A stretch of DNA of 64,000 nt from Amoebidium appalachense (Eukaryota; Protista; Ichthyosporea): positions 14,354,914-14,418,913 of the forward strand of contig CAVNZM010000003.1 in the NCBI GenBank assembly GCA_963693365.1, read 5' to 3'. Position numbers and translations under genes: made by a program. Shown here piece after piece: positions 13,011 to 61,564 of the stretch (the stretch's first letter is position 1; every line of letters starts with the position of its first letter). Under the pieces are notes generated by a model that was not told the origin of the DNA, made no database searches, and was given only the letters and a program-made list of their open reading frames with translations.

Positions 13011-16000
13011 CGCGTCCCCCCGCCTCCGTACTCAACGGACTCCTTCTATGACAATGGGCTTAACTCTTCTCACACGCATCCTAGCACACAGGTTACTTTG
13101 TTCTAATCTACTTGTATGCCATTAACGTCATTTGTACAGGGATGGAGATATGTAGCTGTTTTGTTCTAATCTACTTGTATGCCATTAACGTCATTTGTAC
13201 AGGGATGGAGATATGTAGCTGTTTCAAGTAGTAATGTAGTAATAATACTTTCTTTTCATTGTATTTATATAATATTTTATTGACAGTCTTCTGTAATACA
13301 CAATCATGGACTAACCCCCCCCCCCCCTCCTCCCCCCCCCCCACAACGCCACCGCCACCTGCTTCACCACCACTCGCTTCTGTTTCCTTTCTTTTGCTGC
13401 ATTCAAACACACATTCACAGCTGGTCGCCTACGCCCCAACTGCCGATGAGCGACCAGCGCTGTGGCTGGCCCTCCTGGATGAGGTCAAGCTGAATGGCCA
13501 GCCGTGCGGCCGCGTGTACTCTGTCGACCCTGAAACGGGCAACCCGTTCGGGTACCAGCCGTTTTCCCGCCTGTTCAGCAGCATCTCATTGAAGGCTGTG
13601 CGGCTTGTCCTTGGCAACAAGACTGCCTTGGTATGTAATGTCCCCAACAAATCACTTTCAACACATTCTGAGTCTAGACTACATCAAAGGACCCCCCCCC
13701 CCCCCCCCCCCCCCCTTCCCTCCTGCCCACCACCCACTCACACATACTCGCTCTTCAACCAACACACGTGTGTACACACACATACACACACACACACTCC
13801 CTTTCACCCTTCCACGTTCTCCTCTGATCACCGGTTTAACTTCCCAAATAACTTGCTTTCATCGTATATATTTACTTGCATAACGCTTTCTTTCCCCCCC
13901 CCCCCCTGTTGGACATTGTGTTCATAGAAGCTAGTTCTAGTGCACGTTGTTCCTTCTGTAAGTCAGAAATGATTGCATCTTGTGAGGCCAACCTCTGCTC
14001 CAGTAGTTGGACTAGTTGCTGCAACTGTAAGTTGTCAGACATAGTGTCGTGTATGATGGGTAACTAGTCTATGTGTTTTGTGCACTGGAAACGACAGTAG
14101 AAAAGTGTAAATCAAACGTTCTGCTTCCCATGTTTGTGACATGGGAGGCACTGCTTTATATAGTCGTTGGCCACCTCATGGTGGCCTCGTGTGCACCCTG
14201 GTGGTGGGCCATGTACAGCATGGCCGAAAAGAGAGCACAATGAAAACAAGTCGTTAAAGATATAAAAGTTAACTGTGCACGTTGAGTGGCTAGTTAACTT
14301 GCACTAAAGCACACAAATAAACGTGTTTAACACACCAATTGCAGTTAAACGTAAATCTTGCTTCACACAACTAAAAATATTCTGAGAATATCCGGGAATA
14401 AAGCACACTACCACTCTAAGAATAGAATCCTGTGGCAAATATAGACATGACATCATCTGAACCGGGAATATTAATTAATGAGCACAATTAGCACGTTGCT
14501 AGTGAAGCTCGTCATTGGTACAGTTTTGGCTCAAACATATAACTACCATATATGAATATGACCGTAAACAAAAGCTCTATGCACTCGAGTGAGTGTTGAA
14601 ACAGTTATTCAATTGCTCAGAAACTTTCTCTAACAGACATTGCTAGCCGGGAGTACCAGTGTACTCCAACACCCCTACTCAATTGGATAATTGTGGTATG
14701 AATTAATGCAACTGAGCTCGAGTGCTTCAGGTGCACAAAATACAGACAATAAAGATTCCCCTACTCAATTTTAGTATGGTACACGTAGTTGCACAGTCGG
14801 ATGCAACTCTCTCCCCCCCCCTGAAGTATGAGGGCGCAGTTGGTTGATGACGGGTGCTCAGCACATGTTGAGCATCCCCACGGCCTTGGTGAAGAAAGAG
14901 GCAGACAGGGCCTTGGTGAACATGTCGGCCTTGTTGTCAGCAGAAGCCACCGGGACCACAGTGATGTTGCCCAGCAGGTGATGTTCCTTGACGGAGCAGT
15001 AGCGGACGTCGATGTGCTTGGTCTTGGGCTTAACCCCCAGGGTGTCCAGCAGGGCCCGGGCAGACTCATTGTCCCCATGGATGGGCACCGGGGTGGGCTC
15101 ATTGATAGGATTAAGGCCCAGGTCGTCCATCACATAGTTGAGCCATAGGGCCTCGTTCGTAGCAGCAGACATGGCCACAAATTCAGCCTCAGTGGAGCTG
15201 TGGGTGGTGATGGACTGGAGCCGAGACACCCAGGACACAGGGGAGGAGTTTATGAAGAAGACATAGCCCGTGGTGGAGCGCCGGGTGTCGCGGTCCTCGG
15301 CGTAGTCGGAGTCGGAGTAGCCAACAAGGTTGGGGGGGCCGGGACGGTAGACAATACCCAGGTCGATGGTGGCCAGCAGGTAGCTTACAACTCTGGTAGC
15401 CATAGTCCAGTGGGTGACGGTGGGCGCATGAATGTGTCGAGTAAGGACTCCCAGAGCCTGGGAAATGTCGGGGCGGGTGGTACGCGCAATCCACAGCAGG
15501 GCACCGACCAGGCTGGCATAGTCCTCCTTCTTGCTGTAGGCTGGGGTCTTGTTGCTTTCACTGGCCTGGCCCGGGACGATGGGGGTCTTGGTGCCGGACA
15601 TGTGGGTGAGACGAAAACGGGCAGCCAAGTCGATGATGTGTTGACGATGGCCCAGACGCAGAGACCCGTCCTCCAGCCAGGTAAGAGTGTGCCCGATGAG
15701 CAGGGTAGGACGACCCAGGTCCTTGGCAGAGAAACGAGCATCCAGCTTGGTGAAAAAATCGTCGATGAGCGCATCAGTGGCGGCCGTCACGGTGAAGTCA
15801 TCCACGTAGGCAGCAAGGGCAATAAATGTTGGGGTCCCGGCATTCTTGATGAACAGGCACGGGTCAGCAGCACTCACAATGAAGCCTTGGTCGAGGAGAT
15901 GGTCACGGAGGGCCTCATACCACTGGCGCGGTGCCTGTTTTAGGCCGTAGAGCGCCTTGTGGAGCAAGCCGACAGCATGGGGGGCCGAGGGGTTGACGAA

Positions 16001-19000
16001 GCCAGGGGGCTGCTCAATGTAGATGGTCTCGTTGACGGTGCCGTTGAGGAATGCTGTGTTGACGTCGATGTGGCGCAGAGGCAGACCTTGGGCCACGGAG
16101 GTAGCCAAAACCAGCCGGATGGTAGCCAGCGCAGCCACAGGTGACTCGGTGACGAAATAGTCCTGGCCAGGCTGCTGGTAGTTGCCCCGGGCCACAAGCC
16201 GGGCCTTGAAAGCAGTGACGTTGCCGACGTTGTCCTGCTTGACCGTAAAGACCCAGCCGACCGGAATGACAGTGGAGCCATCCTCTGGACGGGGCACAAG
16301 GGTGAAGGTGCCGTTGTCTTCCAGGGCCTTGAGCTCACGGTGTGCAGCCTCCTCCCATTTCAGACGCTGGGGACTCTTGAGTGCAGCCCGGACAGTCTTG
16401 GGGACAACAATGGTGGAAGCCTTGATGGGTGTTGATGCAGGAGCCGTAGCCTGGGGGGCAAGGGGGGCCGTAGCAGCAGCCACGTTGGCAGTCGGGCCTC
16501 GACGTTGGTCGTTGTACACAGCGCCACTACGGGTCGTCCGGGGGAGCCGATGTGCAGGCTCGGGCAGGATCGGAATGTCCAATTGATCACTCGGCGCTGT
16601 CCCATTGGCTGACAGACGAGACGAATCAGATTGCTGATCATTCCGGACGATGTGATTGGCTGGCTGATTTGACGAATCAGATGACTCCAAAAAATGATGA
16701 ATTGCCGGTGCGGTCGACCAATCAGATGGGACATCACGGAGGGGGTGCAGAATAGCAGCCTCGTCGAACTGCACGTCACGGCTGACGGTCATCTTGTGTG
16801 CTGCTGGAATCCAGACCTTGTAGCCCTTGATGTTAGGAGGGTAGCCCACGAAGATGCCCTTGACGGCACGAGGCGCCAGTTTCGGTGTATCCTGTTGATG
16901 GACGTAGCAGGGAGAGCCCCAGACACGGAGCCGGCTGTAGTCGGGAGGAATGCCGGTCCACAGCAGGGCGGGAGACGATTGGCTGCCGGTGGCTCGCGAC
17001 GGGAGCATGTTGCGTATAAAAGCCGCGGTCACAGCTGCCTCGGCCCAGAATCCCACCGGAAGGCCGGACTGCTGCAGGAGTGCCCGAACCATGTCGAGGA
17101 GGGTCCGGTTCAGTCGTTCGGCAGTCCCATTCTGTTGAGGAGAGCCGGTGGTAGTGATCTGATGGCGAATGCCATGCTCACGGTTGTAGTCCCCGAAGGC
17201 CGTGCCCATGTACTCGCCCCCCCGTCGGACTGAAACACCTGCATGGGAACACCGTGTTGGGTAACCGCCGCCTTGTGGTACGTCACATATGCAGCCAGTG
17301 TGTCCGACTTCTTGACGAGGGGCACGGCCGTGGTGTGGCCGGTGAATTCGTCGTGGAACGTCGCCAAGTACTGAGCACCACCGATCGCGGGAGGGAAGGG
17401 GCCGCTGATGTCGCTGTGAACCTTGGCTAGGACCCGGGGAGCTTGGCTAGTTGATTCGGAGAAGGCAACACGGTGGGCTTTGCCGAGGGCACAGGGCTCA
17501 CACACACCCGGAGACTTGGCACCGCCACCCACCAACAGGCCTGCAGACTTGATGACCGAGCGTACAGCGTCAATGCCAGCATGGCCCAGACGGTAGTGCC
17601 ACGTGTTGAGGTCGGCAGTAACCTTGAGGATACGCGGAGCAGTGGTGGTTTGGGCGTCCGGGGTTGTGTCCGCGCGCAGAAGAGACACCGCCATGTGGTA
17701 CAGCTTGGTGCCGACAGCCGAGCCGGTGGCCAGAATTTGATCGCCGTAGCACAACTTAACGCCGCCGCGGGTGTCAAAGCGGGGTAAAACACCGTTGGTA
17801 GTTGCCGTGAACACACTGATGAGAGTGTCGGGGATGGAGGGCACGTAGAGTACATCCGTCAGCTGATGCACCGCAGTAACGCCGTCGATGGTGCTGGAAA
17901 AGAACACGTCGCCCACCCCAAGCACTGCACATGCACCCTTGTCGGCTACTTGGACCGTGGAGTAAGGCGCCGCACGCATGTTGATGAACACATCGGGCCG
18001 GGGGCACACATGGTCAGTGGCTCCAGAGTCGAGGAGCACCTTGTTGGTGCCACAGTCGTTGCTAGACATGAGGAAAGCCCGGGGAGCGGCAGCCCCCCTT
18101 GCACTGTGCCGTAGTGTGGGTAGTAGAGGCAGGGTGGTTGATGCAGGACCCAGGCGGGAGGGGACCACCCTTAGGTTTGCGGCCGTTGGCACGGTTGCCC
18201 CCCTTGCACATGGCGGTAGTGTGACTGGTAGACAGTGGGTGGTTGACGCAGGAACCCTTGGGGTAGGTGCTGGCACGGTTGTTGCCAGAGTTGCTGTGTT
18301 GGCCGTTGCCGTTGGGGCACTGAGACTTGATGTGGCCTGGTTTGCCGCAGCCGTGGCAGATGACAGGTTGAGGAGCCCGTGTGGTGAAGGCGGCCGGCCC
18401 GGAGCTGGTAGTCACACGTGCACGTGAGTGGCTGGTCTCATATGCCCGTAGCTGTTGGAGGAGGCCCATCACGGTAGGCTTGGGTGTCATCTTGTAGGCA
18501 ATTACAGGCATTTCGTAGTAAGGCACCTTGCCGAGGTCGTTGGTGAGCTTGGTCAGCACTTGAGCATCACCAATTTGTGTGCCGTAATCGGCCAGGCGCC
18601 GCACGTAGCCGCGGAGTTTCATGGCGTATTTCGTCGCGGTGTCCGTAGGTTCAGGCGTAGAATTCATGTACAGCCCGATAAGGTCGTACTGATTGGCCTC
18701 AGATTGCTCCAGGTAGTGGGCAGATAGGGCCGACCATATCTCCGCAGGTGTGGTGGTGCGTGTTAACCCTAGGATACAACGCACGTCAACCGAGAGTGCT
18801 TGCCACAGGTAGGAACGGGCAGTGTCGACCTGTTCACGGGTAGCCGGGTGCTCCGTACTGGGCGCGATGGTGTGGAGAAGACCAGCACCAGAAAGCTGGA
18901 CATACATGGTTTCGGCCCATGTGTGGTAGTCCGTGCCTGAATCATTATCAATGCCAGTGAAGAGAGGGATGTCGACCTTGAACTTGATGGAATCATTACG

Positions 19001-19781
19001 TGAGGGGCCCATAACCCTGTTGGACATTGTGTTCATAGAAGCTAGTTCTAGTGCACGTTGTTCCTTCTGTAAGTCAGAAATGATTGCATCTTGTGAGGCC
19101 AACCTCTGCTCCAGTAGTTGGACTAGTTGCTGCAACTGTAAGTTGTCAGACATAGTGTCGTGTATGATGGGTAACTAGTCTATGTGTTTTGTGCACTGGA
19201 AACGACAGTAGAAAAGTGTAAATCAAACGTTCTGCTTCCCATGTTTGTGACATGGGAGGCACTGCTTTATATAGTCGTTGGCCACCTCATGGTGGCCTCG
19301 TGTGCACCCTGGTGGTGGGCCATGTACAGCATGGCCGAAAAGAGAGCACAATGAAAACAAGTCGTTAAAGATATAAAAGTTAACTGTGCACGTTGAGTGG
19401 CTAGTTAACTTGCACTAAAGCACACAAATAAACGTGTTTAACACACCAATTGCAGTTAAACGTAAATCTTGCTTCACACAACTAAAAATATTCTGAGAAT
19501 ATCCGGGAATAAAGCACACTACCACTCTAAGAATAGAATCCTGTGGCAAATATAGACATGACATCATCTGAACCGGGAATATTAATTAATGAGCACAATT
19601 AGCACGTTGCTAGTGAAGCTCGTCATTGGTACAGTTTTGGCTCAAACATATAACTACCATATATGAATATGACCGTAAACAAAAGCTCTATGCACTCGAG
19701 TGAGTGTTGAAACAGTTATTCAATTGCTCAGAAACTTTCTCTAACAGACATTGCTAGCCGGGAGTACCAGTGTACTCCAAC

Positions 19782-19814
<33 letters not shown>

Positions 19815-24336: not shown

Positions 24337-27300
24337 ATTTGTGTGTGCACGCGCACGCGCGAGTGTTGTGACATAAACTTTCACCAAGTTTAGGGGTGTG
24401 TGTGTAAGCATGAAGTGTGTACTTGTGTGTGTGGGTGGCAGGGCAGGGAAGGCGAGAATGAGGGGCATGGCGAAGAAAGCCCAGCACTCACAAAGGCTAC
24501 AAGTAAGCACCCACCTCGGAGCGTGGATTCTATAAACAGTCCGCTCCATGCAGCCTGTCAACGATTCACCGTTATAATGTCCATCCGAATGACAAGCAAA
24601 CAACATGAAAATGGACACAACAAGCTGAGGGCTGACATTGTTCCATTGACACTAACAGAGAGAAACAAATAAAAGAGAATACAAAAGTTATCATTGTGAT
24701 AAAACCAAAACTCACAAGACTATTCACTGAAGAGAGGTAGAGAACCTGACACATGTGCAAGGCCATCGAGAAAACTCTACGTGACTCCATTCCGTCACAC
24801 TTTGCAAGTGCAGGTACACGAACAATGTGTGCCAAAGTTTCAAACGCGAACATTCATCTGTATGGAATGTAATGATGCGCCTAGCGCCAATGGGAGAGCG
24901 CCACTAAGAGATTCACGGCATCCCGCTTATTGGTTCCAGGGATGCGGATTGATACGGCGGGAAATACCTCGCCCAATACGCTCACGAACACCGTTTTATT
25001 ACAAATTCGGCGCCGACCGTACGGCGCCTATTCGGCACGACCAGTCGCGTGAGCAAGCAGCATACAAAATTATGAAATTCCTCAAAAAAGTCGTGGCTCA
25101 TCTGCAATCGGTCGGGCCGATTTCGCGCACCTCGACTATAATAGAAAATAGTCGCCACTACACGGTACCAATCGTCTAACTGCTGGTTTTATAGTGAGTG
25201 ACTAGATGTATAATTACTTAATTTATTTAAGTAAGAGTTTCTACGCTTTAGTTTAATCGGAAGTTGGAATGTGTATGCTCTGTCGGAATGTGTTTTTCTA
25301 TCTTCTGATAGAACCGATTGGTTCTCCCTCTTTAGTTGTGATAAGGTGATAAGTCGCAAGTACAAAAGGAACCGAGAGCACAATAAAGAATCAGTTGTTG
25401 TTTGAATCTTTCAATGTCTCGTGAACAACTCCGATTGCCCTCTCATTAATGTGTTAGTCGTGTTTTACATGACACCTCTGTGCACTCTGCTCCCTTAGAC
25501 CCGTACAAAACAATAGGTTAAAGGCCCATTTTCGCACGCTCTCGCAACACATACTCTCGCTGCAATCGAAAATATTCAAATTTGAATACCGATCTGATTC
25601 CTCTCTCACGCATCATCTGACTGATTGATCACCATGTCGGAGAAACCTGCGTATCTCAACCTCACCCCCTGGAAAGGGGATGACACCACGGACAAGAAGT
25701 CCGGCAAACGTCTCACCTATTATGAGTGGGAACCCGTCATCTTCAGGTACCTACGTACCACCACCGCGGCCAAGTTAGTGCCCGTCATCAAGGCCCCCGA
25801 GTGGGTCGACCCTTCCGACGAGAACGAGTGGCACGGCTATGACACTGAGGAGGCCTACACCGAGGCTTCCAACTTCCTTGAACAGATGTTTACTCAACTC
25901 GTCTCCAATTATGAGCTGTATAACTCTGGTCAAATCCACGATGATGTGTCACCTGCCCAAGCTTTCCACAACCTCCGTATGACCTATGCGGCTGAACGTG
26001 AAGATCGTGCTCGTCAAATCCTCCTCGACTACCATGAGCTTGAACTCAAGGACTTCAAGACCGTCACGGCCTACCTCACCATGGCACGCCGTCTGTGCAC
26101 TACCCTGCACATCCTCGAAGAGCCCATTCCTCACAAGACTATGGTTGATAACTTCTTCATCCACCTCAAGAAGAACCGTAAGTTAGTTTGTACCGACATC
26201 CAGGCCATGATTGCCGACTACTTCCGTCGTACCATCAACTACGAGACCTACAACCGTCTAATCAGTGACATCCGAGCTGCAGAGATCCGTGAAGGTCTCA
26301 TCGACTCTGGGTCCGGGTCCTCCTCCACCGTCCGAATAGCACGTGCCCTGCAAAGCCGTGTCCTCACCAAGGACGACCTCAGACACCGGATCCCCCGACG
26401 TGACAGCTCCGTCTCCCGTCACCCCCGTGGTCGTCCCACCGATCGATCCCCCTCAGTTGACCGTGATTACTCCCGGTCCCGTTCCCCCGGCTATCGTTCC
26501 CGGTCACCCTACCCCCCACGTAAAGGGGGTAACCGTCATTCCCAGCCACCCCGAGCCAAGACCACTGGCTCCCTCGACTGTGCCTACTGTCACGAAGACC
26601 ATCATGTCACACAGTGTGACCAACCTGGCTGCTCAATTGCCCGTCGTCACCGTGCCAGCACCAAGTCTGGAAAAGATGTGCATTTTGCCCTCGTGTCCAC
26701 CACGGCCTCCCTACCCATGGACCCCTGCTGGGACTCGGCTTCCAACGTGCACGTGTGCCCAGTAAAGGAGTACTTCTCTACTCTTGAGCCATGCCCCCCA
26801 ACTGACGTCCACGGCCTCGGCATCGTCACTGCACATCACCGTGGTGTCATCAACCTGGCCGTCACCTACAACGGAGTAACATCAGTACTGAGCCTCAACA
26901 CCCTCTATGTACCCGACTCCCCAGCCTTCCTGATATCACCCTCAATGGCCTCCAAGTCGGGTCTCCTTGCCCACCTAGATGATGAGGATGAATTCCCATC
27001 CTACCTCTACACTCGTGGTGGCAACATCGTGTGTTCCCTCACAGGCACAGATGGATTGTACTTCATCACTGACTATGAGATACGTCCCTCCATCCCTCGG
27101 ACCGTCACTGCTCTGGTAGCCAAGGAGCAACCTCCTGGTTTTATCCTCCCTGGCAATGAACACAAAGTCTAGAAACTCAAGAAGGCCATCTACGGACTCA
27201 AGCAGGCATCCCTGGCATGGTACGAGTTCTTCAACTCAATTCTCATTGCCCACGGCCTCACCCGTCTCCGTTCCGATCCGTGTGTCTACTTCCGTCAGTT

Positions 27301-29317
27301 CCCCAACGGGCACATCATCCGTTCGGGCAACTACGTTGATGATGCCATCATCACCTGCACACGGCACTCCACCATCATGCAGGGGCTTGTTCGTCACATC
27401 ACGAAGTCTGCCGAGTGCAAGGTCGGTCTGCCAGACATCTTCCTCGGCACCCAACTGCTGTACACCCGTGACTCCCTCAAGCTGCTGCAGTCCTCCTACA
27501 TCAAGGACATCATCACCGACTTCAACCTAGTCGATGCCAAGCCTAAGGCCACCCCTATTCCCGTGGGCACCATCATCAACGAGACCTCCCTCTCATCCCT
27601 GCCCACCACCGTCCCCTACCGTGAACTCCTCGGCCGTCTGCTGTGGGTTGCTCGGTGCTCCCGGCCTGACATCTCGTATGCCATTGGCTACCTCGGCCGA
27701 TTCAGCTCCAAGCCCACCAAGACTGCCTGGGAGCTTCTCCTCCGTGTCGTTCGTTACCTGCTCGGCACCATCAACCTCGGCCTCTACTACAAGCAGAAGG
27801 CCCCCAACAGCAAGGTGCCCATCCTTGAGTGCTACTTGGATTCTGACTTTGCTGGTTGCCCCACCACCCGTCGTTCCACGTCTGGGTACGTCATCCTCCT
27901 CGAAGGCACCCCCGTCACCTACCACTCCAAGCTGCAGACGATCACTGCAACTTCCACCTGTGAGGCCGAGCTCCTGGCCCTCAATGCTGCCGTGCAAGAT
28001 GTTGTCTGGCACCGTGATCTACTAAAGGAGCTGGGCTACCCCATGACCGAGCCCACCCCCGTGTACTGTGACAATCAGTCCACCATTGCTCTGGTCCACT
28101 CCAACACCATCAAGCACCGGACCAAGCACATTGCCGTTCGTTACTTCAACACCAAGGACTACATCAACAGTGGGGACGTCACTGTCACCTACATCGACAC
28201 CAAGAAGAACCTGGCCGACATCTTCACCAAGCCTCTGGCTGGTCCGGCCCACGACACACACCGTGCCAACCTCAGTCTCCGTGACTGACCCGTGCACTGG
28301 TGTTCATCATCGAGTGGTTTCTGAGTAGGTTGGGGCCCTGGACAGCAGTTGACACACCTACGGTGATCAAGATGCCTCCCAACGAAAGTCTACTACTCCT
28401 CATCGTTTCTCTTCATCAGTGGGGACTTAGTCTTACATCGTCATATGTGTGCATCTTCAGTGGGGATTATTCTCCACCATCCGTCGTTTATTTATATTCA
28501 TATCCCACCATATATATTGGTTTTCTTCTATATTCGACTTTATATATATGTCGAACTGGGATGGCGTCTGTTGTTTTGTACGGGTCTAAGGGAGCAGAGT
28601 GCACAGAGGTGTCATGTAAAAACACGACTAACACATTAATGAGAGGGCAATCGGAGTTGTTCACGAGACATTGAAAGATTTCAAACAACAACTGAATCTT
28701 TATTGTGCTCTCGTTTCCTTTTGTACTTGCGACTTATCACCTTATCACAACTAAAGAGGGAGAACCAATCGGTTCTATCAGAAGATAGAAAAACACATTC
28801 CGACAGAGCATACGCATTCCAACTTCCGATTAAACTAAAGTGTAGAAACTCTTACTTAAATAAATTAAGTAATTATACATCTAGTCACTATTAACTCACA
28901 TATATATTTATGTTCGTCTCTATAAAGAAACTTATTTAAATACATATATTTCCTAACAGTCGACACTCTCAAAGTGAAGACACTTTGCAATAAACCGAAT
29001 TCCATATATATCTATTGTCCAATCACAACACACATATATTAACAGACAGGAATGCACAACACAATCTACAGATGTACTCGCTCGCGACTATTGGCGAGCC
29101 ATCCTTTTGAGAACAAACTAGGCCATTTTGAAATAAAGGAAAGACAACGAGTGAGGCTAGCCAATCACGCTACCTCTCAGATAAACAGAGGAGAGCAAAT
29201 AGAAATAAAACACAATAAGTTCTTATCAGGCAAGAGAGCCAGGTGTGCACAGATCTACAGATATCTGTGCCCACAGAAACAAGGGAGAGAGAGATACGGG
29301 GGGGGGGGGGGGGGGGG

Positions 29318-29394
<77 letters not shown>

Positions 29395-30219
29395 GGAGAG
29401 AGAGAGAGCACAAAGGAGGAAAGCAGACACGAATACAAACAAGCTAGGACACATACATACTTCAAGGCTCTTGCTGTCATACATGGTGACGTATTCCAAC
29501 ATCCCCACTCAAGGGGTTGAAGTTTGTGTTCTCGTGTCTGTTGATGTGACGGTAGATGGGGTCCAAACACAGGAGGGGCCGTCACACTCAAGTTTCCCCA
29601 CTCGAGGATGCAAACCGAAGATCCTTGAGGTGGGAAGGAGAGAATCAAAACTGAAGAGGCACACAACGACGGTTGCCTCTGAAGACTCGAAATAAGAAAT
29701 CATGGTGGTTATCGGCGATATATATATATAGATAGGAAACACTAGTGTATGTGTGACGTGTTGGTGGCTAATGGTTTATACTGGGGACCACCCAGGTAAA
29801 CACAAGACATGAACATCTTGTGGACTGATTTATAGACTGGTGGTCAACCAGTTAAGACACGGGGAAGGTGCATCCCGTGGACTAGGTTTAGACTGGCAGT
29901 CAACCAGCACGTCATGGCTATAGATAATTATTTATACTGGGACGCCATCCCAGTTCGACATATATATAAGTCGAATATAGAAGAAAACCAATATATATGA
30001 TGGGATATGAATATAAATAAACGACGGATGGTGGAGAATAATCCCCACTGAAGATGCACACATATGACGATGGAAGACTGAGTCCCCACTGATGAAGAGA
30101 AACGATGAGGAGTAGTAGACTTTCGTTGGGAGGCATCTTGATCACCGTAGGTGTGTCAACTGCTGTCCAGGGCCCCAACCTACTCAGAAACCACTCGATG
30201 ATGAACACCAGTGCACGGG

Positions 30220-33200
30220 TCAGTCACGGAGACTGAGGTTGGCACGGTGTGTGTCGTGGGCCGTACCAGCCAGAGGCTTGGTGAAGATGTCGGCCAGGTT
30301 CTTCTTGGTGTCGATGTAGGTGACAGTGACGTCCCCACTGTTGATGTAGTCCTTTGTGTTGAAGTAACGAACGGCAATGTGCTTGGTCCGGTGCTTGATG
30401 GTGTTGGAGTGGACCAGAGCAATGGTGGACTGATTGTCACAGTACACGGGGGTGGGCTCGGTCATGGGGTAGCCCAGCTCCTTTAGTAGATCACGGTGCC
30501 AGACAACATCTTGCACGGCAGCATTGAGGGCCAGGAGCTCGGCCTCACACGTGGAGGTTGCAGTGATCGTCTGCAGCTTGGAGTGGTAGGTGACGGGGGA
30601 GCCTTCGAGGAGGATGACGTACCCAGACGTGGAACGACGGGTGGTGGGGCAACCAGCAAAGTCAGAATCCGAGTAGCACTCAAGGATGGGCACCTTGCTG
30701 TTGGGGGCCTTCTTCTTGTAGTAGAGGCCGAGGTTGATGGTGCCGAGCAGGTAACGAACGACACGGAGGAGAAGCTCCCAGGCAGTCTTGGTGGGCTTGG
30801 AGCTGAATCGGCCGAGGTAGCCAATGGCATACGAGATGTCAGGCCGGGAGCACCGAGCAACCCACAGCAGACGGCCGAGGAGTTCACGGTAGGGGACGGT
30901 GGTGGGCAGGGATGAGTGGGAGGTCTCGTTGATGATGGTGCCCACGGGAATAGGGGTGGCCTTAGGCTTGGCATCGACCAGGTTGAAGTCGGTGATGATG
31001 TCCTTGATGTAGGAGGACTGCAGCAGCTTGAGGGAGTCACGGGTGTACAGCAGTTGGGTGCCGAGGAAGATGTCTGGCAGACCGACCTTGCACTCGGCAG
31101 ACTTCGTGATGTGACGAACAAGCCCCTGCATGATGGTGGAGTTCCGTGTGCAGGTGATGATGGCATCATCAACGTAGTTGCCCGAACGGATGATGTGCCC
31201 GTTGGGGAACTGACGGAAGTAGACACACGGATCGGAACGGAGACGGGTGAGGCCGTGGGCAATGAGAATGGAGTTGAAGAACTCGTACCATGCCAGGGAT
31301 GCCTGCTTGAGTCCGTAGATGGCCTTCTTGAGTTTCCAGACTTTGTGTTCATTGCCAGGGAGGATAAAACCAGGAGGTTGCTCCATGTACAAAGTCTCGT
31401 CGAGGGGGCTGTTGAGGAAGGCCGTGCTGATGTCGAGTTGATGGATCTCGTGGTCCTGTTGCACACCGAGGGCAAGCAGGGCACGGACGGAGGAGGACAT
31501 GACGACGGGGGAAGAGTTTTCACCGTAGTCAACACCGTAGACTTGGGTGAAACCCTTGGCCACACCACGACCCTTGATCTTGGTGTCACCAGCAGAGTTG
31601 AGGACCTTCTCCGTGACAATCCACTTGAATCGGATGATGTTGGCATCGGAGGGGGGCTCAACTACGTCGAAGATGTCCTTGTCGATGAAAGCCTTGTACT
31701 CGGCAGTGAGGGCAGTCACCACTTCATCACCCTTGGTGCCAGAGCACAGCTTCTGAATTGACCGGGGCAGCTGAGACACATCAAGGCTGGGTCGGGAGAT
31801 GCTCACCATAGCCATAGCAGGCCGGGAGGAGAGACGGGAGGAACGACGGGGAACGGTACGGAGGGGCTCAGGGGCCGGGGGGTTGTCTGTGACAGACACT
31901 CGGTGGTCGGGGATGGGGGCCTGGAAGCCAGGGATGGGTGCCGTGTTGAGGGGGGAGTCGGATAACACGGGGCTGGACGGGGCCGAGTGGAACTCCGGAG
32001 ACCCAGGACGAACCGGGGTGAGATGACCAGGTACGTGGTCATTGACGGCAGGGGCCGGCAGCAGGGGTTGCTGACCGGTGGGGGGGGGGGTGGGTGGAGC
32101 CACGGGGGCAGGTACACGACGGGGGGAACGACGGATAATCACCCACGGAATTTCATCGTCATCGGAATTGGAATTTCCGGAATGCAGGGATGAATCGATT
32201 GAGGTCGTCTGATTGGTGGCCTGCACAGAAATCTGATTGGATGCCGTGGTGAATTGTGATTCGTCGAAGACGACATCGCGGTAGAGGTTGACCGTGTTGC
32301 CACGTAGATTCATGATCTTGTGGGCTTTGTTGGTGATATCCCAGCCCACGTAGGTGCCGAGTTTGACGGTAGAGGCCAACTTGTCTCGTTTGGATGCAGG
32401 GACGTGTACATAGGCTGGGCAGCCGAACACGTGCAGGTGGGAGATGTCAGGCTTGACACCGTAGAAAATTTCAAACGGTGTACGGCCATTGGCAGCTCTG
32501 GCCGGGGTCACGTTGATGATGTAGGCAGCATGCTTGAGAGCAGCTCCCCACAGTTTGGGGGAAAGGGAGTCGGCCTTGTCCTGATGAAGGAAGCACCGAA
32601 CGATCTCCTGCAGATCCCTCATCTTACGTTCAACGAAGCCGTTGAGTTGGGGGCAGTCAACCGGGGCAAATTCTTGAATGATGCCCTTGGACTGGCAGTA
32701 CTGCTCCATAGCGTGGGAGGTGAACTCGGACCCAGAGTCTGAACGGAAGTGGGTCACCACCTTGTCGGGTTGCTTGTCAGTAGTCTCAACCAGGGCCTTG
32801 ACGTATTCGAGAGTTTCGGATCGATCACGGAGGAGGTACACGATGGTGTAGCCAGAGGCATCACAGGTACACACGAGGGCCACCTTGTAGCCACCATAGG
32901 AGGCACAGGGAGGCTCGAAGAAGTCCATGTGCCACTTGGCACCGGGGAAGGGGCACTGGGTTCTGGTGCCGGAGAATGGGGCCTTGGTGGTCTTGCCGGA
33001 GACACAACCGAAGCAGTCAGTGGTGTCAGCCACTGAGAGGGATGAGGGGAGGCCTGTCACGAGGTCACCTCTCACCATCTTGGTGAGGGTGGACAGGGCA
33101 CGATGGCCGAGACGGTGGTGCCAGAGCTGAGGATCATTGTTGACCTTGACGTTGGCTACCAGAGCAGTGACGGTCCGAGGGATGGAGGGACGTATCTCAT

Positions 33201-34642
33201 AGTCAGTGATGAAGTACAGTCCATCTGTGCCTGTGAGGGAACACACGATGTTGCCACCACGAGTGTAGAGGTATGATGGGAATGCATCCTCATCATAGAG
33301 GTGGGCAAGGAGACCCGACTTGGAGGCCATTGAGGGTGATATCAGGAAGGCTGGGGAGTCAGGTACATAGAGGGTGTTGAGGCTCAGTACTGATGTTACT
33401 CCGTTGTAGGTGACGGCCAGGTTGATGACACCACGGTGATGTGCAGTGACGATGCCGAGGCCGTGGACGTCAGTCGGGGGGCATGGCTCAAGAGTAGAGA
33501 AGTACTCCTTTACTGGGCACACGTGGACGTCTGAAGCCGAGTCCCAGCAGGGGTCCATGGGTAGGGAGGCCGTGGTGGACACGAGGGCAAAATGCACCTC
33601 TTTTCCAGACTTGGTGTTGGCACGGTGACGACGGGCAATTGAGCAGCCAGGTTTGTCACACTGTGTGACATGATGGTCTTCGTGACAGTAGGCACAGTCG
33701 AGGGAGCCAGTGGTCTTGGCTCGGGGTGGCTGGGAATGACGGTTACCCCCCTTTACGTGGGGGGTAGGGTGACCGGGAACGATAGCCGGGGGAACGGGAC
33801 CGTGAGTAATCACGGTCAACTGAGGGGGATCGATCGGTGGGACGACCGCGGGGGTGACGGGAGACGGAGCTGTCACGTCGGGGGATCCGGTGTCTGAGGT
33901 CGTCCTTGGTGAGTACACGGCTTTGCAGGGCACGTGCTGTTCGGACGGTGGAGGAGGACCCGGACCCAGAGTCGATGAGACCTTCACGGATCTCTGCAGC
34001 TCTGATGTCACTGATTAGACGGTTGTAGGTCTCGTAGTTAATGGTACGACGGAAGTAGTCGGCAATCATGGCCTGGATGTCGGTACAAACTAACTTACGG
34101 TTCTTCTTGAGGTGGATGAAGAAGTTATCAACCATAGTCTTGTGAGGAATGGGCTCTTCGAGGATGTGCAGGGTAGTGCACAGACGGCGTGCCATGGTGA
34201 GGTAGGCCGTGACGGTCTTGAAGTCTTTGAGTTCAAGCTCATGGTAGTCGAGGAGGATTTGACGAGCACGATCTTCACGTTCAGCCGCATAGGTCATACG
34301 GAGGTTGTGGAAAGCTTGGGCAGGTGACACATCATCGTGGATTTGACCAGAGTTATACAGCTCATCATTGGAGACGAGTTGAGTAAACATCTGTTCAAGG
34401 AGGTTGGAAGCCTCGGTGTAGGCCTCCTCAGTGTCGTAGCCGTGCCACTCATTCTCGTCGGAAGGGTCGACCCACTCGGGGGCCTTGATGACGGGCACTA
34501 ACTTGGCCGCGGTGGTGGTACGTAGGTACCGGAAGATGACGGGTTCCCACTCATAATAGGTGAGACGTTTGCCGGACTTCTTGTCCGTGGTGTCATCCCC
34601 TTTCCAGGGGGTGAGGTTGAGATACGCAGGTTTCTCCGACAT
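30220..34642 (-). CDS. Copia-B gag-pol polyprotein; one extra G at ~33750 relative to copy A
   Basis: RS-rich gag, knuckle CAYCHEDHHVTQC, protease WDSAS, integrase WHHRLGH..CFGC / SDSGSEF / ERKMR, RT YVDD, RNase H YSDSD and ADIFTK. Copy A has G5 in frame where this copy has G6. Confidence 0.93.
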
Positions 34643-35052
34643 GGTGATCAATCAGTCAGATGATGCGTGAGAGAGGAATCAGATCGGTATTCAAATTTGA
34701 ATATTTTTGATTGCAGCGAGAGTATGTGTTTGCGAGAGCGTGCGAAAATGGGCCTTTAACCTGTTGTTTTGTACGGGTCTAAGGGAGCAGAGTGCACAGA
34801 GGTGTCATGTAAAAACACGACTAACACATTAATGAGAGGGCAATCGGAGTTGTTCACGAGACATTGAAAGACGGATTTCAAACAACAACTGAATCTTTAT
34901 TGTGCTCTCGGTTCCTTTTAGATTTTGTCCTGGTGCAGAGACTAGCGATCTTGCTAGCCTTGAGATCACAACCTAACCACTGCCGATGGTTGTGATGACG
35001 CCAATAAAGGCGTGCTGGCTTTTACCCCAGCGAGAAGAGGATGAGAAAAAGA

Positions 35053-35125
35053 TGATCCCGACGGGATTTGAACCCGCGACCCCTCTATCTCCGGTCGAGT
35101 GCTCTACCAACTGAGCTACGAGATC
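35053..35125 (-). tRNA. tRNA-like cloverleaf in the TRIM 3' LTR (anticodon loop CC-GGA-GA, probably Phe-derived; function unproven)
   Basis: GATCTCG-TA-GCTC-AGTTGGTA-GAGC-A-CTCGA-CCGGAGA-TAGAG-GGGTC-GCGGG-TTCAAAT-CCCGT-CGGGATC-A followed by TCTTTTT. All four stems pair, with one anticodon-stem mismatch; A and B boxes are intact. Confidence 0.8.
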
Positions 35126-35422
35126 GGTTAAGATCTCGCAGGCCACCAGCCGATCATGATCTGATTCATGCGATCGGACTGGATAACGATACCATCTTCC
35201 AACATCCCCACTCAGGACGAATCGCAGAATCAGGTTAGGGTGGACTGCCCCCTCAGTCCCCACTGAACCTCTGTTCATGCTACCATTTTAGATTTTGTCC
35301 TGGTGCAGAGACTAGCGATCTTGCTAGCCTTGAGATCACAACCTAACCACTGCCGATGGTTGTGATGACGCCAATAAAGGCGTGCTGGCTTTTACCCCAG
35401 CGAGAAGAGGATGAGAAAAAGA

Positions 35423-35495
35423 TGATCCCGACGGGATTTGAACCCGCGACCCCTCTATCTCCGGTCGAGTGCTCTACCAACTGAGCTACGAGATC
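35423..35495 (-). tRNA. tRNA-like cloverleaf in the TRIM 5' LTR (identical copy)
   Basis: Same 73-nt sequence, 370 bp away, in the other LTR. Confidence 0.8.
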
Positions 35496-36178
35496 GGTTA
35501 AGATCTCGCAGGCCACCAGCCGATCATGATCTGATTCATGCGATCGGACTGGATAACGATACCATCTTCCAACAGTTCCTTTTGTACTTGCGACTTATCA
35601 CCTTATCACAACTAAAGAGGGAGAACCAATCGGTTCTATCAGAAGATAGAAAAACACATTCCGACAGAGCATACACATTCCAACTTCCGATTAAACTAAA
35701 GTGTAGAAACTCTTACTTAAATAAATTAAGTAATTATACATCTAGTCACTATTAACTCACATATATATTTATGTTCGTCTCTATAAAGAAACTTATTTAA
35801 ATACATATATTTCCTAACAGTCGACACTCTCAAAGTGAAGACACTTTGCAATAAACCGAATTCCATATATATCTATTGTCCAATCACAACACACATATAT
35901 TAACAGACAGGAATGCACAACACAATCTACAGATGTACTCGCTCGCGACTATTGGCGAGCCATCCTTTTGAGAACAAACTAGGCCATTTTGAAATAAAGG
36001 AAAGACAACGAGTGAGGCTAGCCAATCACGCTACCTCTCAGATAAACAGAGGAGAGCAAATAGAAATAAAACACAATAAGTTCTTATCAGGCAAGAGAGC
36101 CAGGTGTGCACAGATCTACAGATATCTGTGCCCACAGAAACAAGGGAGAGAGAGATACGGGGGGGGGGGGGGGGGGGG

Positions 36179-36244
<66 letters not shown>

Positions 36245-36800
36245 GAGAGAGGGAGAGAGAGAGAGCACAAAGGAGGAAAGCAGACACGAATACAAACAAG
36301 CTAGGACACATACATACTTCAAGGCTCTTGCTGTCATACATGGTGACGTATTCCAACAGCGTCCCAGTATAAATAATTATCTATAGCCATGGCGTGCTGG
36401 TTGACTGCCAGTCTAAACCTAGTCCCCGGGATGCACCTTCCCCGTGTCTTAACTGGTTGACAACCAGTCTATAAATCAGTCCACAAGATGTTCATGCCTT
36501 GTGTTTACCTGGGTGGTCCCCAGTATAAACCATTAGCCACCAACACGTCACACATACACTAGTGTTTCCTCTATATATATATATCGCCGATAACCACCAT
36601 GCTTTATTGTTTCAAGTCTTCAGAGGCAACCGTCGTTGTATGCCTCTTCAGTTTTGATTCTCTCCTTCGCACCTCAAGGATCTTCTGTTTGCATCCTCGA
36701 GTGGGGAAACTTGAGTGTGACGGCCCCTCCTGTGTTTGGACCTCATCTACCGTCACATCAACAGACACGAGAACACAAACTTCAACCCCTTGAGTGGGGA

Positions 36801-36892
36801 TGTTGGAATACGTCACCATGTATGACAGCAAGAGCCTTGAAGTATGTATGTGTCCTAGCTTGTTTGTATTCGTGTCTGCTTTCCTTCTTTGT

Positions 36893-36966
<74 letters not shown>

Positions 36967-39900
36967 CCTCTCTCTCTCTCCCCCCCCCCCCCCCCCCCCC
37001 CCCCCGTATCTCTCTCTCCCTTGTTTCTGTGGGCACAGATATCTGTAGATCTGTGCACACCTGGCTCTCTTGCCTGATAAGAACTTATTGTATTTTATTT
37101 CTGTTTGCTCTCCTCTGTTTATCTGAGAGGTAGCGTGATTGGCTAGCCTCACTCGTTGTCTTTCCTTTATTTCAAAATGGCTTAGTTTTGTTCTCAATAG
37201 GATGGCTCGCCAATAGTCGCGAGCGAGTACATCTGTAGATCGTGTTGTGCATTCCTGTCTGTTAATATATGTGTGTTGTGATTGGACAATAGATATATAT
37301 GGAATTCGGTTTATTACAAAGTGTCTTCACTTTGAGAGTGTCGACTATTAGGAAATATATGTATTTAAATAAGTTTCTTTATAGAGACGAACATAAATAT
37401 ATATGTGAGTTAATAGTGACTAGATGTATAATTACTTAATTTATTTAAGTAAGAGTTTCTACGCTTTAGTTTAATCGGAAGTTGGAATGCGTATGCTCTG
37501 TCGGAATGTGTTTTTCTATCTTCTGATAGAACCGATTGGTTCTCCCTCTTTAGTTGTGATAAGGTGATAAGTCGCAAGTACAAAAGGAACCGAGAGCACA
37601 ATAAAGAATCAGTTGTTGTTTGAATCTTTCAATGTCTCGTGAACAACTCCGATTGCCCTCTCATTAATGTGTTAGTCGTGTTTTACATGACACCTCTGTG
37701 CACTCTGCTCCCTTAGACCCGTACAAAACAATAGGCACCAAGGGTGATGAAGTGGTGACTGCCCTCACTGCCGAGTACAAGGCTTTCATCGACAAGGACA
37801 TCTTCGACGTAGTTGAGCCCCCCTCCGATGCCAACATCATCCGATTCAAGTGGATTGTCACGGAGAAGGTCCTCAACTCTGCTGGTGACACCAAGATCAA
37901 GGGTCGTGGTGTGGCCAAGGGTTTCACCCAAGTCTACGGTGTTGACTACGGTGAAAACTCTTCCCCCGTCGTCATGTCCTCCTCCGTCCGTGCCCTGCTT
38001 GCCCTCGGTGTGCAACAGGACCACGAGATCCATCAACTCGACATCAGCACGGCCTTCCTCAACAGCCCCCTCGACGAGACTTTGTACATGGAGCAACCTC
38101 CTGGTTTTATCCTCCCTGGCAATGAACACAAAGTCTGGAAACTCAAGAAGGGCATCTACGGACTCAAGCAGGCATCCCTGGCATGGTACGAGTTCTTCAA
38201 CTCCATTCTCATTGCCCACGGCCTCACCCGTCTCCGTTCCGATCCGTGTGTCTACTTCCGTCAGTTCCCCAACGGGCACATCATCCGTTCGGGCAACTAC
38301 GTTGATGATGCCATCATCACCTGCACACGGAACTCCACCATCATGCAGGGGCTTGTTCGTCACATCACCAAGTCTGCCGAGTGCAAGGTCGGTCTGCCAG
38401 ACATCTTCCTCGGCACCCAACTGCTGTACACCCGTGACTCCCTCAAGCTGCTGCAGTTCTCCTACATCAAGGACATCATCACCGACTTCAACCTGGTCGA
38501 TGCCAAGCCTAAGGCCACCCCTATTCCCGTGGGCACCATCATCAACGAGACCTCCCTCTCATCCCTGCCCACCACCGTCCCCTACCGTGAACTCCTCGGC
38601 CGTCTGCTGTGGGTTGCTCGGTGCTCCCGGCCTGACATCTCGTATGCCATTGGCTACCTCGGCCGATTCAGCTCCAAGCCCACCAAGACTGCCTGGGAGC
38701 TTCTCCTCCGTGTCGTTCGTTACCTGCTCGGCACCATCAACCTCGGCCTCTACTACAAGAAGACGGCCCCCAACAGCAAGGTGCCCATCCTTGAGTGCTA
38801 CTCGGATTCTGACTTTGCTGGTTGCCCCACCACCCGGCGTTCCACGTCTGGGTACGTCATCCTCCTCGAAGGCTCCCCCGTCACCTACCACTCCAAGCTG
38901 CAGACGATCACTGCAACTTCCACCTGTGAGGCCGAGCTCCTGGCCCTCAATGCTGCCGTGCAAGATGTTGTCTGGCACCGTGATCTACTAAAGGAGCTGG
39001 GCTACCCCATGACCGAGCCCACCCCAGTGTACTGTGACAATCAGTCCACCATTGCTCTGGTCCACTCCAACACCATCAAGCACCGGACCAAGCACATTGC
39101 CGTTCGTTACTTCAACACCAAGGACTACATCAACAGTGGGGACGTCACTGTCACCTACATCGACACCAAGAAGAACCTGGCCGACATCTTCACCAAGCCT
39201 CTGGCTGGTCCGGCCCACGACACACACCGTGCCAACCTCAGTCTCCGTGACTGACCCGTGCACTGGTGTTCATCATCGAGTGGTTTCTGAGTAGGTTGGG
39301 GCCCTGGACAGCAGTTGACACACCTACGGTGATCAAGATGCCTCCCAACGAAAGTCTACTACTCCTCATCGTTTCTCTTCATCAGTGGGGACTCAGTCTT
39401 ACATCGTCATATGTGTGCATCTTCAGTGGGGATTATTCTCCACCATCCGTCGTTTATTTATATTCATATCCCACCATATATATTGGTTTTCTTCTATATT
39501 CGACTTTATATATATGTCGAACTGGGATGGCGTCCCAGTATAATTAATTATCTATAGCCATGGCGTGCTGGTTGACTGCCAGTCTAAACCTAGTCCACGG
39601 GATGCACCTTCCCCGTGTCTTAACTGGTTGACCACCAGTCTATAAATCAGTCCACAAGATGTTCATACCTTGTGTTTACCTGGGTGGTCCCCAGTATAAA
39701 CCATTAGCCACCAAAACGTCACACATACACTAGTGTTTCCTCTATATATGTATATCGACGATAACCACCATGATTTATTGTTCCGAGTCTACAGAGGCAA
39801 CCGTCGTTGTGTGCCTCTTCAGTTTTGATTTTCTCCTTCCCACCTCAAGGATCTTCGGTTTGCATCCTCGAGTGGGGAAACTTGAGTGTGACGACCCCTC

Positions 39901-40854
39901 CTGTGTTTGGACCTCATCTACCGTCACATCAACAGACACGAGGACACAAACTTCAACCCCTTGAGTGGGGATGTTGGAATACGTCACCATGTATGACAGC
40001 AAGAGCCTTGAAGTATGTATGTGTCCTAGCTTGTTTGTATTCGTGTCTGCTTTCCTTCTTTGTGCTCTCTCTCTCTCTCTCTCTCTCTCCCCCTCTCTCT
40101 CCTCCCCCCCCCCCCCCCCCCCCCGTATCTCTCTCTCCCTTGTTTCTGTCGGCACAGATATCTGTAGATCTGTGCACACCTGGCTCTCTTGCCTGATAAG
40201 AACTTATTGTGTTTTTATTTCTGTTTGCTCTCCTCTGTTTATCTGAGAGGTAGCGTGATTGGCTAGCCTCACTCGTTGGCTTTCCTTTATTTCAAAATGG
40301 CCTAGTTTGTTCTTAAAAGGATGGCTCGCCAATAGTCGCGAGCGAGTACATCTGTAGATTGTGTTGTGCATTCCTGTCTGTTAATATATGTGTGTTGTGA
40401 TTGGACAATAGATATATATGGAATTCGGTTTATTGCAAAGTGTCTTCACTTTGAGAGTGTCGACTATTAGGAAATATATGTATTTAAATAAGTTTCTTTA
40501 TAGAGACGAACATAAATATATATGTGAGTTAATAGTGACTAGATGTATAATTACTTAATTTATTTAAGTAAGAGTTTCTAAACTTTAGTTTAATCGGAAG
40601 TTGGAATGCGTATGCTCTGTTGGATTGTGTTTTTCTATCTTCTGATAGAACCGATTGGTTCTCCCTCTTTAGTTGTGATAAGGTGATAAGTCGCAAGTAC
40701 AAAAGGAACCGAGAGCACAATAAAGAATCAGTTGTTGTTTGAAATCTTTCAATGTCTCGTGAACAACTCCGATTGCCCTCTCATTAATGTGTTAGTCGTG
40801 TTTTACATGACACCTCTGTGCACTCTGCTCCCTTAGACCCGTACAAAAACAACA
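36801..40854 (+). mobile_element. Copia family B copy C: shares LTR 36801-37733 with copy A and retains only RT-RNase H
   Basis: LTR end AACAATA plus GG is joined directly to GCACCAAGG of the RT region; RT-RH is open to 39254; PPT at 39963-39971; 3' LTR 39972-40854. Confidence 0.9.
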
Positions 40855-59777: not shown

Positions 59778-60227
59778 TTTTCTAGTTTACAGCGCCAAAA
59801 AAAAGAAGGAACTCCTTTAGGATAGATATATATGTGCGTGCTAGTGTGAAAATACTTTACATATTATGTGCATGCACACATGTATAAACTACATAAACAT
59901 CGCCCCATATAGGCACTCTACACTTATGACTAACGCACACGACCCCGGGACCGTCTAAAAAACAAAAACGAAAACGCCATCGCGTTTTATGAAGTTGTTT
60001 TATGCGGCTCGGACCAGTGCTGGTAAAGGGCCTATAATTTCACTACTTATTTAGGTTAAAGCCGCTAATTTACAGAATGTCCGTTTAGAGGGGTTTAAAG
60101 TCATTTTTCATATGGTATAGTTTAATGAATATGCACATTGTACATTTCGAGAAGTTTTCTTTATCGTATTTACCGTTTCCCGTATTCTTTTTATGAGCCA
60201 CTTTCCCATATATAGGGCACACGGATA

Positions 60228-61513: not shown

Positions 61514-61564
61514 TGACATATACTAATCCGTCTTAGCAGATCAGCCTAAGTCTATGATCGAGAT

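Follow-up and report, generated by a model that had tools for sequence, protein, structure and literature searches.

A Helenus-type miniature LTR element with a tRNA-like sequence in each LTR, nested in a Copia LTR of Amoebidium appalachense

TRIMs that carry a tRNA-derived sequence in their LTRs, together with both a PBS (primer-binding site) and a polypurine tract (PPT), have been described under the name Helenus (Kojima, 2024, Biology 13:119; PMC10886601) and form, with Cassandra and Ajax, the group TRIMp3. Helenus elements are 311-1263 bp long and are known from six phyla of animals, from fungi and from Selaginella. Animal families make a target-site duplication of 4 bp, those of fungi and Selaginella one of 5 bp, and the helpers indicated are of Copia type in fungi and of Gypsy type in animals; in fungal Helenus the internal part resembles Copia, while the LTRs do not (PMC10886601). 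In Cassandra, transcription starts in the module of the 5' LTR and ends in the module of the 3' LTR, with a terminal repeat of 18 bp. The passages of the same paper used here name terminators for Cassandra only and describe the use of Pol III by Helenus as unvalidated. In every Helenus LTR that we compared from the supplement, a run of four to six T lies shortly 3' of the tRNA-like part (PMC10886601).

Here, we analyzed a window of 64,000 nucleotides of Amoebidium appalachense, and all positions given below are counted from its first letter. Amoebidium belongs to the Ichthyosporea, within the Opisthokonta. We found no report of an element of this kind in Amoebidium in the literature, and the passages of the Amoebidium genome paper that were searched (PMC11244446) mention neither Copia nor tRNA nor SINE. 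In a separate region of the window, an ORF on the minus strand (58626-59786) encodes a BTB_2 domain followed by NHL repeats; its one match in a large protein collection was EP00123_Amoebidium_parasiticum_P006988, with which it agrees in every one of the first 248 aligned residues. A lead from the nearest sequence clusters towards Oomycota, Haptophyta or Bacillariophyta was given up in view of this Amoebidium record.

Structure of the element and of its tRNA-like module

A 659-bp non-coding LTR element occupies positions 34916-35574, and all of its functional features are read on the minus strand. It is delimited by two direct repeats of 289 nt each (34916-35204 and 35286-35574) that are 100% identical, and no third copy of this repeat is present elsewhere in the 64-kb window. 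The features of the element and of the Copia element that surrounds it are the following.

28569-36358, minus strand: host Copia element, with LTRs at 28569-29501 and 34762-36358, target-site duplication GCGTC and a pol ORF at 30220-34014
34911-34915, unstranded: left target-site duplication GTTCC, matching the right copy; the empty paralogous site is at 28714-28718
34916-35204, minus strand: 3' LTR of 289 bp, sense 5'-TGTTGG...TCTAAAA-3', 100% identical to 35286-35574
35046-35050, minus strand: T5 run of the 3' LTR, predicted Pol III terminator and predicted 3' end of the genomic RNA
35053-35125, minus strand: tRNA-like sequence of the 3' LTR, found by ARAGORN and by Rfam RF00005 (57.4 bits)
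35107-35118 and 35064-35074, minus strand: A box and B box, respectively, of the 3' LTR, located by sequence
35205-35214, minus strand: PPT TGAGTGGGGA, which, extended by the initial 8 nt of the LTR, equals the Copia junction
35205-35285, minus strand: internal region of 81 bp, non-coding
35273-35285, minus strand: PBS TGGTAGCATGAAC of the TGG type (by sequence, the type that matches the 3' end of a tRNA)
35286-35574, minus strand: 5' LTR of 289 bp, recognized by repeat identity
35416-35420, minus strand: T5 run of the 5' LTR, which a full-length RNA would have to read through
35423-35495, minus strand: tRNA-like sequence of the 5' LTR, found by ARAGORN and Rfam, with a predicted Pol III start at ~35495
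35477-35488 and 35434-35444, minus strand: A box and B box, respectively, of the 5' LTR, located by sequence
35575-35579, unstranded: right target-site duplication GTTCC, matching the left copy

The PBS directly adjoins the 5' LTR, and the PPT closes the 81-nt internal part immediately before the 3' LTR. The longest open frame has 104 codons and crosses the PBS and the tRNA-like part, and a Pfam search of this frame gave 0 matches. An initial annotation of this DNA had proposed a 659-bp element with identical 289-bp LTRs, a PBS, a PPT, a GTTCC duplication and no coding capacity, all of which was confirmed. An earlier reading of the LTR ends as TG...CA had to be corrected: the termini are TG...AA and deviate from the canonical TG...CA pattern. 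The outer U5 junction is represented by the window copy only, and the TTTT of the target blurs its position by up to 4 nt.

The tRNA-like sequence of each LTR is 73 nt long (35495..35423 and 35125..35053). ARAGORN reports it as a 73-nt tRNA with the anticodon GGA, and in a search of the whole window it reached 57.4 bits against Rfam RF00005 (gathering score 29; E 9.3e-10). No other Rfam family was detected in 34850-35650 at E<=1, including 5S rRNA and hammerhead ribozymes. The A box TAGCTCAGTTGG and the B box GGTTCAAATCC are intact in both LTRs. Starting 2 nt past the 3' end of the tRNA-like part there is a T5 run, the sole run of at least four T on the sense strand of the element; since 71% of shuffles of the 370-nt unit contained at most one such run, its being alone is not unusual. 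The Rfam score, the ARAGORN prediction and the located boxes bear out the description of the module as a 73-nt cloverleaf whose A and B boxes are intact and which has a T5 run nearby, and the Rfam alignment shows paired acceptor, D and T stems. The assertion that the stems are paired holds for these three, but the anticodon stem contains one G-A mismatch. The minimum-energy fold resembles a cloverleaf, but its stability is not significant (z = -1.63), with 14 of 200 shuffles folding equally well. We therefore discarded the thermodynamic fold as evidence for a tRNA shape, and it is the covariance-model score that speaks for the shape and the origin of the module.

The ability of the module to decode is a separate matter. 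Cytosolic tRNA-Ser has a long variable arm, whereas here the serine anticodon GGA is carried by a 73-nt body with a short variable arm. The anticodon loop reads CCGGAGA, with a C at position 33, and is closed by the mismatched stem. Judged by these three features, the tRNA-like part is unlikely to decode, which agrees with the earlier remark that U33 is missing and that decoding appears to be lost. It could still be argued that the element, as a retrotransposon, disperses a functional tRNA gene and raises the copy number of a decoding tRNA. The 57.4 bits and the nearly intact state of the four stems would fit such a role, as would the published remark that tRNA-Thr or tRNA-His may be encoded by a few Helenus families of fungi and bivalves (PMC10886601). 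With C33, the G-A mismatch and the serine anticodon on a short-armed body standing against it, we regard this explanation as scarcely credible.

As to the relatives of the module, its 5' 27 nt recur unchanged in many tRNA-Lys(UUU) genes of metagenome contigs, with at least 119 loci matched in a search that is biased by the word chosen. The common locus types among the matches listed are all tRNA-Lys(UUU) and resemble the module in 54-59 of 76 letters. The loci left out of this range agree in 36-48 of 76 letters and are incomplete records or run into unrelated sequence past the anticodon loop. No copy of the element was present among the listed 27-mer loci, and a 24-mer taken from the anticodon arm had no match in the metagenome scan.

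Insertion site, further copies and integrity of the module

The small element interrupts the LTR 34762-36358 of the host Copia element, which is the 5' LTR of the latter, and both elements lie on the same strand. The pol ORF of the Copia element (30220-34014) encodes the domains RVT_2, rve and gag_pre-integrs, and a search with its polyprotein retrieved relatives of at most 38% identity. Its two LTRs are identical at 928 of 930 aligned bases, with 8 gap columns in addition. The LTRs of the small element are without any difference, which is expected for a younger, nested insertion when compared with the Copia LTR pair.

The empty form of the insertion site was found both within the window and outside it. 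In the other LTR of the Copia element, the sequence CTCTCG-TTTCC-TTTTGTAC at 28708-28726 represents the empty site with one base different. The exact empty form, ...CTCTCG-GTTCC followed by TTTTGTAC, was present in contigs of public sequencing runs, in 3 of the 4 runs of one set and in all 4 of another. In the first set this form appeared as a loose end ...CTCTCG before 35575, and in the second as GTACTTGC... after 34919. These paralogous and public-run empty sites show that the insertion with its 5-bp duplication is real and precise. Together with the identical LTRs of the small element, they also uphold the initial view of a recent insertion into the Copia LTR.

Other copies of the element were sought in the public runs (designated X and a number). 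Of the 24 runs listed, 19 contained at least 0.68 of the sampled words; they bear four coded organism labels, and the best-matching runs may include the source sample of the window itself. A closed contig of 370 bp, consisting of LTR and internal part, was recovered in all four runs of the first set. In the second set, the closed joint between LTR and internal part was found in three of four runs, and a variant joint in X2 and X5. Compared with the copies in X1, X2, X3 and X11, the window has two differences in the LTR, at 35290 and 35374, where it has A and the runs have G. The A letters are present in both LTRs of the window copy, which is consistent with a single template for both. In X5, the window letter at 35004 accounts for ~4% of the depth (724.8 of 16808.3), so that more than one variant of the element coexists in this run. 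The metatranscriptome X20 contained a share of 0.05 of the sampled words and was left out of the analysis. Run X1 was rejected as evidence of expression because its label 'RNA?' is a guess and its contigs show no transcript starts or ends. Within the window, a 373-bp tandem array at 2415-3939 was considered as an array of TRIMs and dismissed, as it has no LTR start and no B-box motif.

The runs also contain the element next to other sequences. In a contig of X3 the end of the LTR runs into GTGATATATAAA..., and in one of X2 into GTCCTCCTCC..., two flanks that are absent from the window. This makes three different right-hand flanks in all (window, X3 and X2), the insertions in X3 and X2 being represented by their right junctions. 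The sole contig of X2 that covers the Copia site of the window has the empty form. The depths in X3 (element 6.6, a junction contig 2.1, Copia flank 9.9) point to only one to a few copies of the element, depth not being the same as copy number. The identical LTRs and the three flanks indicate that the element probably belongs to a young family that is still mobile. All three right-hand flanks start with GT, which may reflect a target preference or, with n = 3, chance.

Since the proposed origin of Helenus is the insertion of a SINE2 into an LTR (PMC10886601), we also considered that a SINE or tRNA retro-copy had recently entered one LTR of an ordinary TRIM, and that the module is not integral to the family. 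One contig of X5 that ends at 35091, within the tRNA-like part, could be read in this sense. The other observations argue against it. The tRNA-like part sits within both LTRs and is identical in the two, which is not the arrangement of a tRNA-derived SINE, and inspection of the sequence revealed no direct repeat around it within the LTR. In 5/5 runs examined the module lies within the LTR, and no joint omitting it was listed. In X5 the depth is 29.8k-49.5k over the tRNA-like part and 29.0k-41.0k over the rest of the LTR, so no large excess over the module is evident; the internal part has a depth of 13.5k-16.0k, about half that of the LTR, as intact elements predict. Very deep contigs of 31-44 nt in X3 cover the D-arm region only, with 2-4 mismatches, and are most simply explained as other tRNAs or tRNA-like sequences in the sample. 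The check for an independent SINE that had been suggested for this locus, made on the even depth in X5 and the joints of the five runs, gave no sign of one. We consider a late arrival of the module in one LTR very unlikely and treat it as part of the element in what follows.

Relation to Copia, Helenus and other non-coding elements

An element without coding capacity depends on a helper, and the resident Copia family is a candidate for this role. The 18 nt formed by the PPT and the start of the LTR (TGAGTGGGGA of 10 nt followed by TGTTGGAA of 8 nt) are identical at the Copia-family junctions 29496, 36791 and 39962. A duplication of 5 bp is common to the small element and to the resident Copia element, which is flanked by GCGTC. 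In other respects the two differ. The PBSs of the two Copia families in the window, GGTTAAAGGCCC and GGGTTATGGGCCC, both lack TGG, unlike the PBS of the small element, and the U5 ends read ...TCTAAAA in the small element and ...CAACA in Copia. No further similarity between the two was detected in LTRs or internal parts in the comparison within the window. It is likely, judging from the shared junction and duplication length, that the resident Copia family copies the element in trans. The same pattern, with likeness to Copia in the internal part and none in the LTRs, has been reported for Helenus of fungi (PMC10886601). We also observed that GGGTTATGGGCCC looks like a primer site of the anticodon-loop type, while that of the small element is of the 3'-end type.

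The locus had initially been presented as an undescribed tRNA analogue of Cassandra. This claim of novelty does not stand, because the same architecture has been published as Helenus (Kojima, 2024; PMC10886601), an outcome that the annotation itself had named as refuting. The structural part of the claim, a miniature LTR retrotransposon with a tRNA-derived Pol III module in each LTR, is well founded on the repeats, Rfam, ARAGORN and the PBS and PPT. With 659 bp of non-coding sequence, two LTRs, a PBS and a PPT, tRNA-derived A and B boxes in the LTR and a 5-bp duplication, within the range of 4-6 bp, the element fits every structural criterion of Helenus, and its architecture is therefore not new. 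It shares with the published elements the format of a non-coding TRIM of less than 1 kb, the decayed anticodon region, the A and B boxes and the T run after the module; its 5-bp duplication is that of the fungal and Selaginella families, and its candidate helper is of Copia type, as in fungi (PMC10886601).

Differences from the published families concern the termini, the tail of the LTR and the PBS. The LTRs compared from the paper all end in ...CA, whereas those of the element are TG...AA; ~6-60 nt of LTR lie past the T run in the published passages, compared with 130 nt in the element; and most fungal families have a PBS of the anticodon-loop type, whereas that of the element is of the 3'-end type (PMC10886601). 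When eight words of the element (13-19 nt) were compared with the supplementary consensus sequences, the single match was a generic A-box 19-mer, which recurs in a family from bivalves; a PPT 9-mer also had one match in the Helenus supplement (PMC10886601). By this comparison of eight words, in which apart from the generic A-box 19-mer no long word is shared with the published consensus sequences, the element is assigned to a new Helenus family. Table 1, the text and the supplement of the Helenus paper name no ichthyosporean or other unicellular holozoan (PMC10886601), and Amoebidium, as a member of the Ichthyosporea, is probably a new host lineage for Helenus.

Other non-coding elements share individual traits with the locus. 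Like the element, Cassandra is a TRIM with a small-RNA-derived Pol III promoter and terminator in each LTR, but its module is derived from 5S rRNA, of which Rfam gives no match here, either at the gathering threshold or at E<=1, whereas that of the element is tRNA-like (type 2 promoter). The 18-bp terminal repeat of Cassandra (PMC10886601) also contrasts with the R of ~80 nt that would apply to the element and would need read-through.

The tRNA-derived SINEs (SINE2) share with the element a head of tRNA origin that contains A and B boxes, the lack of coding capacity and the dependence on a helper. They stand alone, with a duplication of variable length and a LINE-type tail, are copied by LINE machinery and lack LTRs, PBS and PPT, whereas the element has all LTR parts and a fixed 5-bp duplication. 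Retrozymes are LTR elements of a non-autonomous kind whose LTRs contain hammerhead ribozymes. They are likewise small and non-coding and have a structured RNA module in each LTR, but this module is a hammerhead, none of which was detected in the Rfam search of the element described above.

Predicted transcription and implications

In our opinion the locus is best explained, with good probability, as a 659-bp non-coding TRIM of the published Helenus type that is likely copied in trans by Copia and for which transcription by Pol III from the tRNA-like promoter is predicted. According to this model, TFIIIC would bind the A and B boxes, and Pol III would start at the tRNA +1 of the 5' LTR, at ~35495. 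For the majority of transcripts, the T5 run of the 5' LTR would be the end point and the length ~80 nt; a fraction would pass 35416-35420, terminate in the 3' LTR, at its T5 run (35046-35050), and yield an RNA of ~450 nt. The terminal repeat R would then correspond to the tRNA-like part, dividing the LTR into a U3 of 79 nt, an R of ~80 nt and a U5 of 130 nt. The Gag, reverse transcriptase and integrase of Copia would package this RNA, prime its reverse transcription at the TGG-type PBS, make use of the shared PPT and integrate the product, giving rise to the 5-bp duplication. Priming by the element's own tRNA-like part was rejected, since neither the 3' end nor the anticodon region of the latter is complementary to the PBS. 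Since most Pol III transcripts would end at a T5 run placed right behind the promoter, a replication-competent RNA would need read-through. Short T runs terminate Pol III incompletely. Transcription by Pol III with read-through of the terminator in the 5' LTR is what we infer from these features of the sequence.

The main rival of this model is that the element is an ordinary TRIM transcribed by Pol II, with the full-length RNA coming from a start in U3 or from read-through out of neighboring elements. The tRNA-like piece would then be a passenger, a TFIIIC insulator, a source of small RNAs or a structure of the genomic RNA. The T5 run, which would end Pol III transcripts after ~80 nt, can be cited in favor of such a reading, and so can the orientation of the copy, which is the same as that of the Copia 5' LTR in which it sits. 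The 130 nt of LTR past the T run point in the same direction, as they exceed the corresponding part of any published Helenus LTR compared (PMC10886601). On the other hand, inspection of the LTR's sense strand reveals no TATA-like and no polyadenylation signal. The combination of intact A and B boxes with a decayed anticodon loop is the pattern expected if the promoter is kept, and the module and the T run recur in independent Helenus lineages (PMC10886601). Weighing these points, we hold transcription by Pol II to be improbable, and we retain the Helenus reading with predicted Pol III transcription.

A more far-reaching proposal, which we advance tentatively and with somewhat less than even confidence, is that the locus represents an active Helenus/TRIMp3 in a unicellular relative of animals, with a Copia helper, 5-bp duplications, an R that consists of the tRNA-like unit, leaky Pol III termination and TG...AA ends. 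If this is true, the element would run counter to the published division, in which animals have a Gypsy helper and duplications of 4 bp and fungi a Copia helper and duplications of 5 bp. With R formed by the tRNA-like unit, its replication would rely on leaky Pol III termination at the 5' LTR. Retroviruses must ignore a polyadenylation signal at their 5' end, and the leaky T5 run of the 5' LTR would be the Pol III counterpart of this situation.

For genome annotation, elements of this kind inflate the number of predicted tRNA genes. For the element class itself, which was named only in 2024, the locus adds the Ichthyosporea, near the root of animals, and a young family. The use of Pol III by Helenus has never been shown experimentally, and with its identical LTRs, a Copia family in the window as its candidate helper and a single T5 run between promoter and body, the element offers a test case. 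It lets one ask whether a Pol III transcript can serve as the genome of an LTR retrotransposon and how the terminator in the 5' LTR would be bypassed.

Elements surrounding the small element

The small TRIM lies in the 5' LTR of a Copia host element (28569-36358, minus strand), and the following features were found around the latter:

2415-3939, tandem array (unit 373 bp, 4.1 copies, 96% matches)
6887-7522, minus strand, Plavaka transposase ORF (domain E 8.8e-21)
10463-11506, plus strand, ORF with a JmjC domain, near the Plavaka ORF (E 3.2e-14)
13904-19786, minus strand, second Copia element (LTRs of 772 bp, 100% identical to each other)
25197-28568 and 36359-40854, both orientations, further pieces of the host element's Copia family (95-99% identity)
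58009-59786, minus strand, BTB_2 and NHL-repeat gene (two frames in the DNA)
61087-61533, plus strand, reverse transcriptase ORF (RVT_1 domain, E 1.8e-11)

The further Copia pieces are nested around the host element and form a Copia nest with it. A long poly-C/G tract surrounds the second Copia element, whose PBS, GGGTTATGGGCCC, resembles a site of the anticodon-loop type (3'-truncated initiator tRNA). The Plavaka and JmjC ORFs may be parts of one large DNA transposon. The RVT_1 ORF is probably a retroelement fragment, of the non-LTR or another kind. In the tandem array, neither a tRNA nor an LTR-start or B-box motif was found. The first 248 residues of the BTB_2/NHL gene product are identical to an Amoebidium parasiticum transcript protein in EukProt (589 aa), and the frame split of this gene is an intron or a frameshift.

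Flanks and a possible variant end of the small element

To the right of the small element, the flank starts with GTTCC in the window (35575 onward) and with GTGAT and GTCCT in the public sequencing runs X3 and X2, respectively. The GT shared by all three known flanks may reflect an integration-site preference (n = 3). One contig of 62 nt from run X11 (depth 38.9) carries LTR sequence from position 20 on (34935 / 35305), joined to the unrelated sequence ...CAACGGGGTG; its source could be either a truncated copy or a relative whose U5 end is different.

The tRNA-like part and its acceptor stem

The first 27 nt and the acceptor 3' strand of the tRNA-like part are identical to those of tRNA-Lys(UUU) genes on many uncultured, apparently bacterial contigs (among at least 119 metagenome loci). 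In a few of these loci unrelated sequence, possibly an intron, follows 3' of the anticodon loop. The 5' acceptor strand also takes part in a second structure, present once per LTR:

35489-35508 and 35119-35138, minus strand, 7-bp hairpin CGAGATC-TTAACC-GATCTCG

This strand doubles as the 3' arm of the hairpin. Within a longer transcript, the hairpin would compete with the acceptor stem.
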